The notes beneath the pieces are model-generated. The model was given only the letters and a program-made list of their open reading frames with translations. It was not told where the DNA came from and did not search any database. 64,000 nucleotides of DNA, taken from assembly GCF_030013595.1 (NCBI RefSeq), contig NZ_CP122768.1. The stretch is one strand, 5' to 3'. This document shows positions 1 to 24,870 of the stretch, piece by piece. Numbering within the stretch: position 1 is the first letter of the stretch; every line of letters begins with the position of its first letter. The stretch comes from Escherichia coli. GTDB taxonomy: Bacteria; Pseudomonadota; Gammaproteobacteria; Enterobacterales; Enterobacteriaceae. A program made the position numbers and the translations under genes.

Positions 1-758
1 AACAGCGAGCCGTAACACGGCTTTGTATCCAGTGTGGATTATTTCTTTTGCAACATGGTGCGGAAAGCGCGTTGGTTGATGAGCTTTCCTCACGACTGGG
101 TCGGGCGCTGGGAATGGACAGCGTCGAAAGTTCTATCTCTTCGAACGCCATAGTGCTGACAACTATTAAAGATGGGCAATGCCTGACATCGACACGAAAA
201 AATCAAGATCGCGGCATTAATATGCATGTGGTGACTGAAGTCCAGCACATTGTGATTCTGGCGGAGCATCATCTGCTGGATTACAAAGGTGTAGAGAAAC
301 GATTTAGCCAAATTCAGCCATTACGTTACCCGAGATGGCTGGTAGCCTTAATGGTCGGCCTTTCTTGCGCCTGTTTCTGTAAACTCAATAAAGGTGGCTG
401 GGATGGTGCCGTCATCACCTTCTTTGCCAGTACGGTCGCGATGTATATCCGCCAGCTACTGGCACAGCGTCATCTTCATCCACAGATCAACTTTTGCCTC
501 ACCGCTTTCGCCGCCACCACCATTTCCGGATTGCTTTTGCAACTTCCCACTTTCAGCAATACCCCCACCATCGCGATGGCCGCCAGCGTTCTGCTGCTGG
601 TGCCGGGCTTTCCGTTGATTAATGCCGTCGCCGATATGTTTAAAGGCCACATCAATACCGGACTGGCACGCTGGGCGATCGCCAGTCTGCTGACACTGGC
701 TACCTGCGTCGGCGTGGTGATGGCACTGACGATTTGGGGGCTACGCGGATGGGTGTGA
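1..758 (+). CDS. yjjP: YjjP-like inner-membrane protein, 5' end probably beyond the window edge
   Basis: ORF to 758 in the track (TTG at 48); reading frame stays open back to position 3; hydrophobic product; synteny with yjjB-dnaT-dnaC. Confidence 0.7.
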
Positions 759-19805: not shown

Positions 19806-21395
19806 ATGAACAATAACGATCTGGTCGCGAAGCTGTGGAAGCTGTGTGACAATCTGCGCGATGGCGGCGTTTCCTATCAAAACTACGTCAATGAACTCGC
19901 CTCGCTGCTGTTTTTGAAAATGTGTAAAGAGACCGGACAGGAAGCGGAGTACCTGCCGGTAGGCTACCGCTGGGATGACCTGAAATCCCGTATCGGTCAG
20001 GAGCAGTTGCAGTTCTACCGTAATCTGCTGGTACATCTGGGCGCCGACAATCAAAAGCTGGTGCAGGCGGTGTTCCAGAACGTCAACACCACCATTACCC
20101 AGCCGAAACAGTTGACCGAACTGGTCGGCAATATGGATTCACTGGACTGGTACAACGGCGCACACGGTAAGTCGCGCGATGACTTCGGCGATATGTACGA
20201 AGGGCTGTTGCAGAAAAACGCCAACGAAACCAAGTCTGGCGCGGGCCAGTACTTCACCCCGCGTCCGCTGATTAAAACCATTATTCATCTGCTGAAACCG
20301 CAGCCGCGTGAAGTGGTGCAGGACCCGGCAGCCGGTACGGCGGGCTTTTTGATTGAAGCCGACCGCTACGTTAAGTCGCAGACCAATGATCTGGACGACC
20401 TTGATGGCGACACGCAGGATTTCCAGATCCACCGCGCGTTTATCGGCCTCGAACTGGTGCCCGGCACCCGTCGTCTGGCGCTGATGAACTGCCTGCTGCA
20501 CGATATTGAAGGCAACCTCGACCACGGCGGCGCAATCCGTCTGGGCAACACCCTGGGCAGCGACGGTGAAAACCTGCCGAAGGCGCATATTGTCGCCACT
20601 AACCCGCCGTTTGGCAGCGCCGCGGGCACCAACATTACCCGCACCTTTGTTCACCCGACCAGCAACAAACAGCTGTGCTTTATGCAGCATATTATCGAAA
20701 CGCTGCATCCCGGCGGTCGTGCGGCGGTAGTGGTGCCAGATAACGTGCTGTTTGAAGGCGGCAAAGGCACCGACATCCGTCGTGACCTGATGGATAAGTG
20801 TCATCTGCATACCATCCTGCGTCTGCCGACCGGTATTTTTTACGCTCAGGGCGTGAAAACTAACGTGCTGTTCTTTACCAAAGGGACGGTGGCGAACCCG
20901 CATCAGGATAAGAACTGCACCGATGATGTGTGGGTGTACGACCTGCGTACCAATATGCCGAGCTTCGGCAAGCGCACGCCGTTTACCGACGAGCATTTGC
21001 AGCCGTTTGAGCGCGTGTATGGCGAAGATCCCCACGGTTTAAGCCCGCGCACTGAAGGTGAATGGAGTTTTAACGCCGAAGAGACGGAAGTTGCCGACAG
21101 CGAAGAGAACAAAAACACCGATCAGCATCTGGCTACCAGCCGCTGGCGCAAGTTCAGCCGCGAGTGGATCCGCACCGCGAAATCCGATTCGCTGGATATC
21201 TCCTGGCTGAAAGATAAAGACAGTATTGATGCCGACAACCTGCCGGAGCCGGATGTATTAGCGGCAGAAGCGATGGGTGAACTGGTGCAGGCGCTGGGCG
21301 AACTGGATGCGCTGATGCGTGAACTGGGGGCGAGCGATGAGGCCGATTTGCAGCGTCAGTTGCTGGAAGAAGCATTTGGTGGGGTGAAGGAATGA
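19806..21395 (+). CDS. hsdM: type I restriction-modification N6-adenine methyltransferase M subunit
   Basis: 529-aa ORF with the NPPF catalytic motif (VATNPPFGS); 4-nt overlap with hsdS. Confidence 0.95.
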   Translation: MNNNDLVAKLWKLCDNLRDGGVSYQNYVNELASLLFLKMCKETGQEAEYLPVGYRWDDLKSRIGQEQLQFYRNLLVHLGADNQKLVQAVFQNVNTTITQPKQLTELVGNMDSLDWYNGAHGKSRDDFGDMYEGLLQKNANETKSGAGQYFTPRPLIKTIIHLLKPQPREVVQDPAAGTAGFLIEADRYVKSQTNDLDDLDGDTQDFQIHRAFIGLELVPGTRRLALMNCLLHDIEGNLDHGGAIRLGNTLGSDGENLPKAHIVATNPPFGSAAGTNITRTFVHPTSNKQLCFMQHIIETLHPGGRAAVVVPDNVLFEGGKGTDIRRDLMDKCHLHTILRLPTGIFYAQGVKTNVLFFTKGTVANPHQDKNCTDDVWVYDLRTNMPSFGKRTPFTDEHLQPFERVYGEDPHGLSPRTEGEWSFNAEETEVADSEENKNTDQHLATSRWRKFSREWIRTAKSDSLDISWLKDKDSIDADNLPEPDVLAAEAMGELVQALGELDALMRELGASDEADLQRQLLEEAFGGVKE

Positions 21396-22760
21396 GTGCG
21401 GAGAAATTGCCGGAGGGGTGGGTTGAGTGTGAATTATCCGAACTCGGTAACATTGTTACAGGGAAAACTCCCAGTACCAAGGAGCCTTCCAATTTTGGAG
21501 GCAGCATTCCTTTCATTAAACCAGGCGATCTTGATCTCGGTGGCTATATCATGAATACCGCCGATACTCTGACGGAGAAAGGGTTATCTCTTGTCCCCAC
21601 TCTTCCTGCCAATTCAGTCGTTGTGACGTGTATTGGAAATTTAGGAAAAGTTGGAATTACCGCTAAAAAATCAGCATCTAATCAACAAATAAATGCATTG
21701 ATCCCGTCAGAAAAGCTAAATGTAAAATTTGTTTATTACCAAATTTTAACATTAAAACCATGGTTAGAGTCTCAATCAGCAGCTACTACAATTGCGATTG
21801 TGAACAAGAGCAAATTTTCTCAGGCACCATTTAAATTCCCGTCGCTTGCCGAACAAAAAATCATCACTGAAAAACTCGATACGCTGCTGGCGCAGGTAGA
21901 CAGCACCAAAGCACGTCTTGAGCAAATCCCACAAATCCTGAATCGTTTTCGTCAGGCTATTCTAGCTAATGCTGTGGAAGGAAAATTGACCGACGAATGG
22001 CGAGCCGGAAAATGTTATATTACAGAAATCAAAAAATATCTGATATTATTCAGAATGCTCAAGTCGGATTAGTTCGTTCAGCTTCAGATCAAAGCGAAAT
22101 ATGCACTCAAAAAATGAGAACGCCTTACATAAAAATGAATAACATTCACAATGTTCTCGGAACAAATTTAGAAAAACTCGCTTATGTCAACTGTGATAGC
22201 TATGAACTGGAAAAATATAGATTAAAAAATGGAGATTGGCTCTTTAATACACGAAATAGTTATGAGTTAGTTGGTAAATCCTGTGTCTGGAATGGATGTA
22301 GCAATGCTGTATATAATAATAATATATTAAGAGTTAGACTAAAAGAAAACTACAATTCTGTTTTTTTAGATTATTGGTTTCACTCGTTCTATGGAGTGAG
22401 CATGCTTAATAGTATTAAATCCGCAACAACAAATGTTGCTGCGATATATCAGAAAGAACTCTTAAGTAAAAGTGTTCCATTCCCCCCCTTCCCGAACAAG
22501 CCGAGATTGTTCGCCGCGTCGAACAACTCTTCGCCTACGCCGACACCATAGAAAAACAGGTCAACAACGCCTTAGCCCGCGTTAACAACCTGACGCAATC
22601 CATCCTGGCAAAAGCGTTCCGTGGTGAACTCACCGCCCAGTGGCGGGCCGAAAACCCGGATTTAATCAGCGGAGAAAACAGCGCCGCCGCGTTGCTGGAA
22701 AAAATCAAAGCTGAACGCGCAGCCAGCGGGGGTAAAAAAGCCTCGCGTAAAAAATCCTGA
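21392..22760 (+). pseudogene. hsdS: type I specificity subunit HsdS, disrupted by two 1-bp homopolymer frameshifts; target-recognition domains differ from EcoKI
   Basis: three consecutive reading-frame pieces (21392..22072, 21997..22551, and a third frame to the TGA at 22758..22760); conserved central (LAEQKIITEKLDTLLAQVDSTKARLEQIPQIL) and C-terminal ([25 protein letters not shown]...) regions are recognisable. Confidence 0.8.
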
Positions 22761-22772
22761 TCATTATTTTCT

Positions 22773-22800
22773 GGCGCACCTTTCCGGTGCGCTTTTTATT
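22773..22800 (+). terminator. rho-independent terminator after hsdS
   Basis: hairpin ggcgcacc-tttcc-ggtgcgc followed by tttttatt. Confidence 0.6.
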
Positions 22801-22893
22801 ATTTTACGCCAATCATAACTCACGCAAATATATTTAAATCATTCCAGAAATTGCCTATTTTATTCTATTTTTAGCTGGACTTTCCCTGTATTT

Positions 22894-22911
22894 ACTGATG
22901 ATATATCCAGG
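22894..22911. promoter_or_regulatory. putative LexA box upstream of symE
   Basis: aCTGatgatatatcCAGg fits CTG-N10-CAG; symE is SOS-regulated. Confidence 0.35.
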
Positions 22912-22914
22912 TAT

Positions 22915-22995
22915 TTAGCGCGGTGCGGATGTGCGCCAACACACCCGCACCGCTCATCACAATCACTATTCCAGGAGAATAGCAGTTATGACTGA
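22915..22995 (-). ncRNA. symR: SymR antisense RNA (type I antitoxin) overlapping the symE 5' UTR and start codon; ends approximate
   Basis: established arrangement for symE; minus-strand TAAAAT -10-like hexamer at 23001..23006 and a hairpin (gcggtgcgg / ccgcaccgc) in the overlapped region. Confidence 0.4.
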
Positions 22996-23329
22996 CACGA
23001 ATTTTATTGCACAACCGTTCGAAGCAGAAGTCTCCCCGGCAAATAACCGTCAATTAACCGTGAGTTATGCGAGCCGCTACCCGGATTACAGCCGTATTCC
23101 CGCCATCACCCTGAAAGGTCAGTGGCTGGAAGCCGCCGGTTTTGCCACCGGCACGGCGGTAGATGTCAAAGTGATGGAAGGCTGTATTGTCCTCACCGCC
23201 CAACCCCCCGCCGCTGAAGAGAGCGAACTGATGCAGTCGCTGCGCCAGGTGTGCAAACTGTCGGCGCGTAAACAAAAGCAGGTGCAGGCGTTTATTGGAG
23301 TGATTGCCGGTAAACAGAAAGTCGCGTAA
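22988..23329 (+). CDS. symE: SOS-induced toxin SymE (AbrB-fold)
   Basis: 113 aa from [15 protein letters not shown] at 22988; position between hsdS and mcrB. Confidence 0.85.
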
Positions 23330-23490
23330 CAGCGTTTACTCCCGGTTAACCACCGGGAGCCTTCCACTGACTCAATAGAAACTTTCCCCCTCAGTAAATA
23401 TTTACCTGCCTGATTGTGCAGTAAAAATCTATTGTTTCAGTACGTTGCGAAAGCGATAATAGAGGCTTAGCAATGAGGAAGGCACATCTT

Positions 23491-24870
23491 ATGGAATCAA
23501 TTCAAGCCTGGATTGAAAAATTTATTGAGCAAGCACAGCAACAAAGTTCACAATCCACTAAAGATTATCCAACGTCTTACCGTAACCTGCGAGTAAAAGT
23601 GAGTTTCGGTTATGGCAATTTTACATCTATTCCCTGGTTTGCATTTCTTGGAGAAGGTCAGGAAGTTTCTAACGGTATATATCCCGTTATTCTCTATTAT
23701 AAAGATTTTGATGAGTTGGTTTTGGCTTATGGTATAAGTGACACGAATAAACCACATGCACAATGGCACTTTTCTTCTGACATACCTAAAACAATCGCAG
23801 AGTATTTCCAGACAACTTCGGGTGTATATCCTAAAAAATACGGACAGTCCTATTACGCCTGTGCCCAAAAAGTCTCACAGGGTATTGATTACACCCGGTT
23901 TGCCTCTATGCTGGACAACATAATCAACGACTATAAATTAATATTTAATTCCGGCGAGAGTGTTATTCCACCTATGTCAAAAACTGAATCATACTGTCTG
24001 GAAGATGCGTTAAATGATTTGTTTATCCCTGAAACCACAATAGAGACGATACTCAAACGATTAACCATCAAAAAAAATATTATCCTCCAGGGGCCGCCCG
24101 GCGTTGGAAAAACCTTTGTTGCACGCCGTCTGGCTTACCTGCTGACAGGAGAGAAGGCTCCGCAACGCGTCAATATGGTTCAGTTCCATCAATCTTATAG
24201 CTATGAGGATTTTATACAGGGCTATCGTCCGAATGGTGTCGGCTTCCGACGTAAAGACGGTATATTTTACAATTTTTGTCAGCAAGCTAAAGAGCAGTCA
24301 GAGAAAAAGTATGTTTTTATTATAGATGAAATCAATCGAGCCAATCTCAGTAAAGTATTTGGCGAAGTGATGATGTTAATGGAACATGATAAACGAGGCG
24401 AAAACTGGTCTGTTCCCTTAACCTACTCCAAAAACGATGAAGAACGATTCTATGTTCCGGAGAATGTTTATATTATCGGTTTAATGAATACTGCCGATCG
24501 CTCTCTGGCCGTTGTTGATTATGCCCTGCGCAGACGATTTTCTTTCATAGATATTGAGCCAGGTTTTGATACGCCACAGTTCCGGAATTTTTTACTGAAT
24601 AAAAAAGCAGAACCTTCATTTGTTGAATCTTTATGCCAAACAATGAACGAGTTAAACCAGGAAATCAGCAAAGAGGCCACTATCCTTGGGAAAGGATTCC
24701 GCATTGGGCATAGTTACTTCTGCTCCGGGTTAGAAGATGGCACCTCTCCGGATACGCAATGGCTTAAGGAAATTGTGATGACGGATATCGCGCCTTTACT
24801 CGAAGAATATTTCTTTGATGACCCCTATAAACAACAGATATGGACCGACAGATTATTAGGTGACTCATAG
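23491..24870 (+). CDS. mcrB: McrB GTPase subunit of the 5-methylcytosine-specific restriction system
   Basis: 459 aa from MESIQAW at 23491; AAA+ GTPase motifs (LQGPPGVGKT). Confidence 0.9.
   Translation: MESIQAWIEKFIEQAQQQSSQSTKDYPTSYRNLRVKVSFGYGNFTSIPWFAFLGEGQEVSNGIYPVILYYKDFDELVLAYGISDTNKPHAQWHFSSDIPKTIAEYFQTTSGVYPKKYGQSYYACAQKVSQGIDYTRFASMLDNIINDYKLIFNSGESVIPPMSKTESYCLEDALNDLFIPETTIETILKRLTIKKNIILQGPPGVGKTFVARRLAYLLTGEKAPQRVNMVQFHQSYSYEDFIQGYRPNGVGFRRKDGIFYNFCQQAKEQSEKKYVFIIDEINRANLSKVFGEVMMLMEHDKRGENWSVPLTYSKNDEERFYVPENVYIIGLMNTADRSLAVVDYALRRRFSFIDIEPGFDTPQFRNFLLNKKAEPSFVESLCQTMNELNQEISKEATILGKGFRIGHSYFCSGLEDGTSPDTQWLKEIVMTDIAPLLEEYFFDDPYKQQIWTDRLLGDS

Follow-up and report, generated by a model that had tools for sequence, protein, structure and literature searches.

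Between the hsdS and mcrB genes of the window, the 64,000-nucleotide stretch of Escherichia coli DNA that was analysed as a whole, lies a short gene, symE, whose 5' end is overlapped on the opposite strand by the gene for a small antisense RNA, symR. The features of this locus, with the evidence on which each was placed, are the following.

22893..22912, no strand assigned: LexA operator (SOS box) of the symE promoter, TACTGATGATATATCCAGGT, placed by LexA matrix and K-12 homology; its cores are CTG at 22895-22897 and CAG at 22908-22910.
22917..22993, minus strand: symR gene, encoding a 77-nt cis-antisense RNA; Rfam RF01809, alignment with K-12 b4625, and fold energy.
22920..22953, minus strand: 3' hairpin of SymR (hairpin 2), in which arms 22920-22933 and 22940-22953 form a stem of 14 bp around a 6-nt loop; a 9-bp repeat reported earlier lies within it.
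22957..22991, minus strand: 5' hairpin of SymR (hairpin 1), a weaker inverted repeat, 22957-22971/22977-22991; Rfam consensus structure and minimum-free-energy fold.
22973..22977, plus strand: Shine-Dalgarno sequence of symE, AGGAG, 10 nt upstream of the ATG and within the region covered by SymR; read from the sequence.
22988..23329, plus strand: symE coding sequence, 113 aa, an AbrB/MazE-fold protein; open reading frame translation, Pfam, NCBIfam, identity with K-12, and annotation in the closest genomes.
23001..23006, minus strand: -10 hexamer of symR, TAAAAT, in symE codons 5-7; aligns with TAGAAT in K-12.
23024..23029, minus strand: candidate -35 hexamer of symR, TTCTGC, placed by its 17-nt spacer to the -10.

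We regard it as close to certain that 22893..23329 is the E. coli symE/symR locus, the ortholog of K-12 b4347/b4625. It shares with K-12 symE/symR (formerly yjiW/RyjC; Kawano, Aravind and Storz 2007, PMC1891008) its position, the hsdS-symE-mcrB order and the strands, and is the same locus rather than a mere relative of it. K-12 MG1655, in which symE (b4347) and the ncRNA symR (b4625) are both annotated, has the same gene order and relative orientation; the order hsdM-hsdS-symE-mcrB-mcrC is collinear between K-12 and the window, and the hsdS-mcrB interval has 96% DNA identity. The annotated order in the closest genomes is yjjP ... mrr, hsdR, hsdM, hsdS, symE, mcrB, mcrC. The chromosomal setting is the mrr-hsdRMS-symE-mcrBC 'immigration control' region, in which symE is located between the hsd and mcrBC restriction genes. 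Across bases 1-25000 the window differs from the pig-faeces isolates HCP5S3_I2 and LCP30S3_I5 by 6 mismatches and 2 single-base gaps, and the symER region is ~100% identical to these two isolates and 96% identical to K-12.

An earlier note on this DNA, made from the letters alone, had proposed a symE/SymR type I toxin-antitoxin module at this place, with a candidate LexA box, an antisense promoter and an inverted repeat. All the features that it listed are real, and Rfam, the K-12 alignment and the SymE family models support its interpretation. The module was already characterized in 2007 and is annotated in K-12, and there is nothing new in that finding. As a re-identification from raw sequence, the locus carries little weight as a discovery and is a clean positive control in which each sub-feature can be checked independently. 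What the wider survey described below adds is covariation and strand-specific support for the 3' hairpin of SymR, and conservation of the LexA box and of the -10 within the reading frame over ~100 variants.

The product of symE is well matched by family models. It scores 76.8 bits against Pfam PF08845, SymE_toxin (cutoff 29), and 224.2 bits against the NCBIfam equivalog NF010128 (cutoff 132), the latter over residues 1-112 of 113. Identity with K-12 SymE extends to 108/113 residues (96%), and the substitutions, H5N, S6F, H22Q, V23L and G26S, all fall in the N-terminal tail (first 26 residues).

The candidate LexA box had been noted at 22894..22911. The CTG-N10-CAG motif proper occupies 22895..22910, inside that interval, and is homologous to the box published for yjiW/symE. 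Scoring with a LexA matrix, which the earlier note had suggested as a check, was carried out with a palindromic weight matrix derived from 28 LexA boxes of K-12 known from the literature, from which symE was left out. The 20-mer at 22893..22912 ranks first in the entire 64 kb window with 16.9 bits; the runner-up reaches 11.3 bits, and the training sites range from 12.3 to 27.1 bits. Such a matrix is needed, since the bare CTG-N10-CAG motif has 29 copies in the window where 12.4 would be expected, and on its own is non-specific. The sequence resembles the SOS consensus TACTG(TA)5CAGTA and lies in the promoter region, 76 nt upstream of the symE ATG. The K-12 box, TACTGATGATATATACAGGT, occupies the same position relative to the gene and is the same at 19/20 positions, with A instead of the C of the window at position 15; it scores 18.1 bits. 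Among distinct related loci from metagenomes, 79/94 have a box of at least 10 bits whose offset is the same to within 3 nt (median 15.4 bits), whereas random 130-nt segments of the same contigs, taken as a control, average -3.4 bits. The symE promoter of K-12 is known to carry a LexA site, and LexA binding and induction by DNA damage are reported for that strain (PMC1891008). The heterology index of that box is 7.9, LexA dependence is 2.5-fold and induction by AZT only 1.5-fold (PMC11228462); it is a box of middling strength.

Some further observations concern the box and its surroundings. At ~10/94 distinct metagenome loci the box position is occupied by GCCTGATTAAATGTTCCGGT, with CTG-N10-CGG in place of CAG and scores of -5 to 7 bits, which suggests that LexA control may have been lost or weakened in this lineage. 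The second-best 20-mer of the window in the matrix scan, TACTGAATAAAAAAGCAGAA at 24593..24612, is probably due to chance, as its 11.3 bits are below the weakest training box and it lies inside mcrB. Candidate symE promoters picked by eye (TGGACT at 22876 with TGATAT at 22899; TATATC at 22902) are weak and we do not claim them.

A gathering-threshold Rfam scan over the whole window returned a sole match, RF01809 symR, at 22993..22917 on the minus strand. The covariance score is 93.5 bits (gathering score 61) and the match covers model positions 1-77 of 77; the same family also matches the equivalent site in K-12 and eight other E. coli genomes with 83-97 bits. The reading proposed earlier hinged on K-12 symR aligning to the minus strand at this place, and b4625 (NC_000913.3 4579835..4579911) aligns to minus-strand 22993..22917 with 3 substitutions in 77 nt. 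Both results position the antisense transcript over the symE start codon, as had been suggested. SymR is encoded in cis opposite the 5' end of symE, with its promoter within the symE reading frame, and is complementary to the symE 5' UTR, the Shine-Dalgarno sequence (22973-22977), the ATG (22988-22990) and codon 2. In K-12 the same 77-nt, two-hairpin antisense RNA is found, and in both strains its 5' end is 3 nt beyond the ATG of symE. The minimum-free-energy fold of the 77-nt minus-strand RNA consists of two hairpins and has an energy of -43.7 kcal/mol (z = -6.9 relative to shuffles); the inverted repeats therefore exceed chance. Of the three SymR bases that differ from K-12, nt 44 is A in K-12 and G in the window, and an A-C mismatch becomes a G-C pair; the K-12 RNA is predicted to fold at -37.8 kcal/mol, so that the window RNA is the more stable of the two.

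The 9-bp inverted repeat that had been placed at 22920..22954 in the 5' UTR forms part of hairpin 2. The left arm, GCGGTGCGG at 22920..22928, does pair with CCGCACCGC at 22945..22953; the right-hand end, however, had been set one base too far, and the arms are really 14 nt long. They are 93% complementary according to a repeat finder and correspond to Rfam model positions 41-74. In hairpin 1, the apical loop (~22972-22976) is the anti-Shine-Dalgarno sequence.

Is this structure maintained by selection? Among ten E. coli genomes no double-sided changes were found in SymR; the divergence between them is too low to test structure, and a metagenome scan was therefore used instead. Metagenome contigs, which carry no taxonomy, were scanned with the exact-flank pattern CACAATCNCTATT-N6-GAATAG, and 117 loci with usable flanks were recovered. 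These comprise 106 distinct 190-mers, and the loci with the symE ATG in register yield 75 distinct SymR sequences, the most divergent of which is 61% identical to that of the window. The set was thus ascertained with fixed flanks and de-duplicated afterwards. Over the 75 variants, 94.0% of cells are paired on the Rfam-like structure. In hairpin 2 the figure is 98.4%, with double-sided compensatory changes at 10/14 pairs; this covariation score was reached by 0/500 shuffles, and slide controls, in which the register is shifted, leave only 24-50% of cells paired. Hairpin 1 is largely invariant, in part since the search pattern fixed it, and says little on covariation.

Pairing is also better on one strand than on the other. 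The whole structure is 94.0% paired when read on the SymR strand versus 80.7% on the symE-mRNA strand, a gap due to G-U pairs, and hairpin 2 is 98.4% paired on the minus (SymR) strand versus 89.4% on the plus strand. It follows that selection acts at least on SymR. We also considered hairpin 2 as a terminator and rejected this idea, as no T-run is present 3' of the stem on either strand and a terminator scan of the region finds nothing there. On the minus strand hairpin 2 is followed by GCU and then by AAAUACCUGG (AAAUACC in the RNA; minus strand 22900..22916) rather than by a U-run, and is thus not a canonical intrinsic terminator. The 3' end of SymR is 5 nt from the LexA box; antisense transcription from symR heads into the symE promoter. 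A separate peculiarity of hairpin 2 concerns its 6-nt loop (22934..22939 in the window), which in some lineages is exactly reverse-complemented (TTGGCG to CGCCAA, TTGCCC to GGGCAA) while the stem is kept. The inverted loop is found in strain S4 (381..457 of its extracted locus, L010) and in metagenome loci, and looks like the signature of template-switch mutation at a palindrome.

The antisense -10 element lies where it had been proposed. The plus strand at 23001..23006 reads ATTTTA, which gives TAAAAT on the minus strand; the Rfam 5' end of SymR, at 22993, follows 7 nt downstream. The hexamer is the positional homologue of the K-12 element TAGAAT, mutation of which (CATTCT to CACTCC) abolished SymR (Kawano et al. 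2007, PMC1891008), which agrees with its reading as the symR -10. Nearly all metagenome loci (114/117) have the hexamer as TA[G/C/A]AAT: TAGAAT in 95, TACAAT in 18 and TAAAAT in 1. The allele of the window is therefore rare, being seen in that one locus out of 117 and in the closest RefSeq genomes (18KM2445, HCP5S3_I2). Third-codon positions in and beside the -10 (23002, 23005 and 23008) are invariant or nearly so, whereas neighbouring ones vary, which indicates a constraint beyond coding. As for the -35, a consensus scan of 22700..23500 on both strands called no full sigma-70 promoter, a -35 for symR included. TTCTGC matches TTGACA at 2/6 positions, and its first two T's (23029, 23028) are invariant, one of them at a third-codon position; from this and the spacing we infer, tentatively, that it might serve as a weak -35. 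Across the -10 stretch HCP5S3_I2 differs from the window only at 23000, where the window has a private C-to-A SNP relative to its closest genomes. This SNP changes SymE His5 to Asn and falls directly downstream of the symR -10, at the first discriminator base.

How would these elements work together? Based on the circuit described in K-12, we propose that in undamaged cells LexA bound at 22893..22912 would repress transcription of symE. The promoter within symE codons 5-7 (-10 at 23006..23001) would drive synthesis of the 77-nt SymR from 22993 to 22917, an RNA that is predicted to fold into two stable hairpins and is perfectly complementary to the symE 5' UTR, Shine-Dalgarno sequence and start codon. 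Pairing of SymR with symE mRNA would block ribosome binding and modestly lower the level of the mRNA. Upon DNA damage, LexA self-cleavage would raise symE mRNA, part of which would escape SymR and allow SymE to be made; Lon would then degrade the protein. In K-12, SymR is constitutive, stable and in ~10-fold excess, and mainly blocks translation across the Shine-Dalgarno sequence and AUG; its loss raises SymE protein ~7-fold and mRNA ~3-fold, independently of RNase III (PMC1891008, PMC4147584). In the same strain, LexA represses symE, Lon degrades SymE, and SymE is toxic when overproduced, a toxicity that SymR prevents (PMC1891008, PMC4147584). All cis elements of the K-12 symER circuit are present in the window, intact, correctly placed and under selection, and the identity, position, strand and conservation of each, as well as the RNA structure, are observed directly. 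By analogy with K-12 we infer that LexA binding, SymR expression, translational repression and turnover by Lon would take place in this strain too.

The circuit has relatives among other toxin genes of E. coli. Like tisB/istR-1 and dinQ/agrB, it comprises a LexA-repressed toxin gene and a small RNA that blocks toxin translation (PMC4147584). The toxins of those systems, however, are small hydrophobic membrane peptides, whereas SymE is a 113-aa soluble AbrB-fold protein, and IstR-1 and AgrB are encoded beside their targets, whereas SymR fully overlaps the ribosome-binding site in cis. With ibs/sib and hok/sok the locus shares an antisense RNA encoded across from the 5' portion of the toxin message, whose translation it blocks (PMC4147584). 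In ibs/sib and hok/sok it is the antitoxin RNA that is unstable, and the mRNA of the toxin is stable; in symER, by contrast, SymR is stable and in ~10-fold excess, and it is the protein that is labile, via Lon (PMC1891008).

Two other readings of the non-coding elements were weighed against this model. One holds that CTG-N10-CAG is a chance motif and that symE here is without LexA control. The abundance of the bare motif, 29 copies in the window, is in keeping with this, and so are the one-base departure of the box from the K-12 allele, the related lineage with CTG-N10-CGG at -5 to 7 bits, and the weak induction in K-12 (PMC11228462). A chance motif would nevertheless have to outscore every other 20-mer in 64 kb with a value in the range of genuine boxes, to lie at the position homologous to that of the published K-12 box (PMC1891008), and to recur at the same offset in most of the diverse loci, where random segments average -3.4 bits; we consider it very improbable. 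The other reading takes the repeat at 22920..22953 to act as DNA, as a protein operator or a terminator for hsdS/symE, and not as a SymR hairpin. The repeat is indeed a GC-rich palindrome between promoter and gene, and would form in the symE 5' UTR as well. Yet what is conserved is the pairing and not the sequence, given compensatory changes at 10/14 pairs, and G-U pairs favour the SymR strand (98.4% versus 89.4%). The repeat coincides with positions 41-74 of the Rfam model, neither strand has a T-run, and a terminator-like hairpin for hsdS lies elsewhere, at 22773-22793. We therefore give a DNA-level role hardly any credence, and retain the LexA operator and the SymR hairpin as the reading of both elements.

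The remaining alternative accepts the locus and questions its label: SymE would be a nucleoid-associated protein that binds DNA and is induced in the SOS response, and SymR would be a constitutive translational throttle, rather than an antitoxin against post-segregational killing or RNA cleavage. SymE was first described as promoting RNA cleavage and as toxic on overproduction (PMC1891008, PMC4147584). According to the summary in PMC11894785, Thompson et al. (2022) report no endoribonuclease activity, non-specific DNA binding and compaction of the nucleoid upon overexpression, and the product name in K-12 RefSeq is now nucleoid-associated protein SymE. The kinetics, with a stable SymR and a Lon-labile SymE, are moreover the reverse of those of a classical toxin-antitoxin pair (PMC1891008). 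On the other side, overproduced SymE is toxic and SymR prevents this (PMC1891008, PMC4147584), and the two are still classed as toxin and antitoxin in Rfam, Pfam and NCBIfam. We view the relabelling as a serious contender that falls somewhat short of an even chance. It bears on the function of the protein and not on the sequence features: the part of the earlier proposal that concerns the identity of the locus stands, while its 'type I toxin-antitoxin' wording is now debated, and the endoribonuclease or 'toxin' role of SymE is disputed.

A strikingly variable patch of 6 nt, 22971..22976, corresponds to the apical loop of hairpin 1 in SymR; it also overlaps the Shine-Dalgarno sequence of symE together with the nucleotides immediately before it. 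The patch has 9 haplotypes among 10 RefSeq E. coli genomes. Its pairwise divergence there, 0.548 versus 0.058 elsewhere, or ~10-fold, is higher than that of any other 6-nt stretch in the 190-nt region. The 117 metagenome loci of the fixed-flank, de-duplicated set contain 30 alleles; in pairs of metagenome variants that differ by no more than 2% elsewhere, the patch differs at 42% of sites, ~33x as often as sites outside it. A 4-mer that is rich in purines and resembles a Shine-Dalgarno sequence is kept in 102/104 variants. The founding paper (PMC1891008) makes no mention of a hypervariable SymR loop, and a literature search for it found nothing relevant. The patch may be under diversifying or balancing selection, acting on the specificity of antisense-target recognition or on the level of SymE translation; we think this unlikely, though worth stating. 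In the specificity version, symER alleles would be mutually orthogonal, in the manner of the antisense incompatibility loops of plasmids. The competing accounts are a localized mutational hotspot at the hairpin loop and relaxed constraint alone. If selection were at work, a hypervariable anti-Shine-Dalgarno loop could bear on the way in which cis-antisense pairs diversify.

Several observations concern the wider surroundings of the locus. The symER cassette (~22856 to the stop codon, ~23325) is present in 2872/5426 complete E. coli genomes, and both of its flanks are common to only 594 of them; the neighbours differ and include mcrB, GmrSD, yjiS and other hsdS/hsdR families. The immigration control region is known to be variable, and the pattern is in keeping with that. 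Relative to HCP5S3_I2, the adjacent hsdS (21392..22760) lacks one base in each of two homopolymer runs, A7 to A6 at ~22030 and C8 to C7 at ~22481, and is thereby split over three reading frames. In HCP5S3_I2 hsdS reads through (457 aa), and PGAP still annotates this intact-looking copy as two partial pseudogenes. The break in the window could be a real inactivation, slippage of a phase-variation-like kind, or a sequencing error in the homopolymers. Further downstream, the 25,000 bases of the window from 25001 to 50000 correspond in its closest genome to 27,113 bases in 3 aligned pieces. The annotation of that genome shows transposases of IS3 and IS1 in this stretch, and a type III effector/pentapeptide-repeat gene is interrupted by one of them; the alignment suggests that the window may be without ~2.1 kb of insertion sequences found there.
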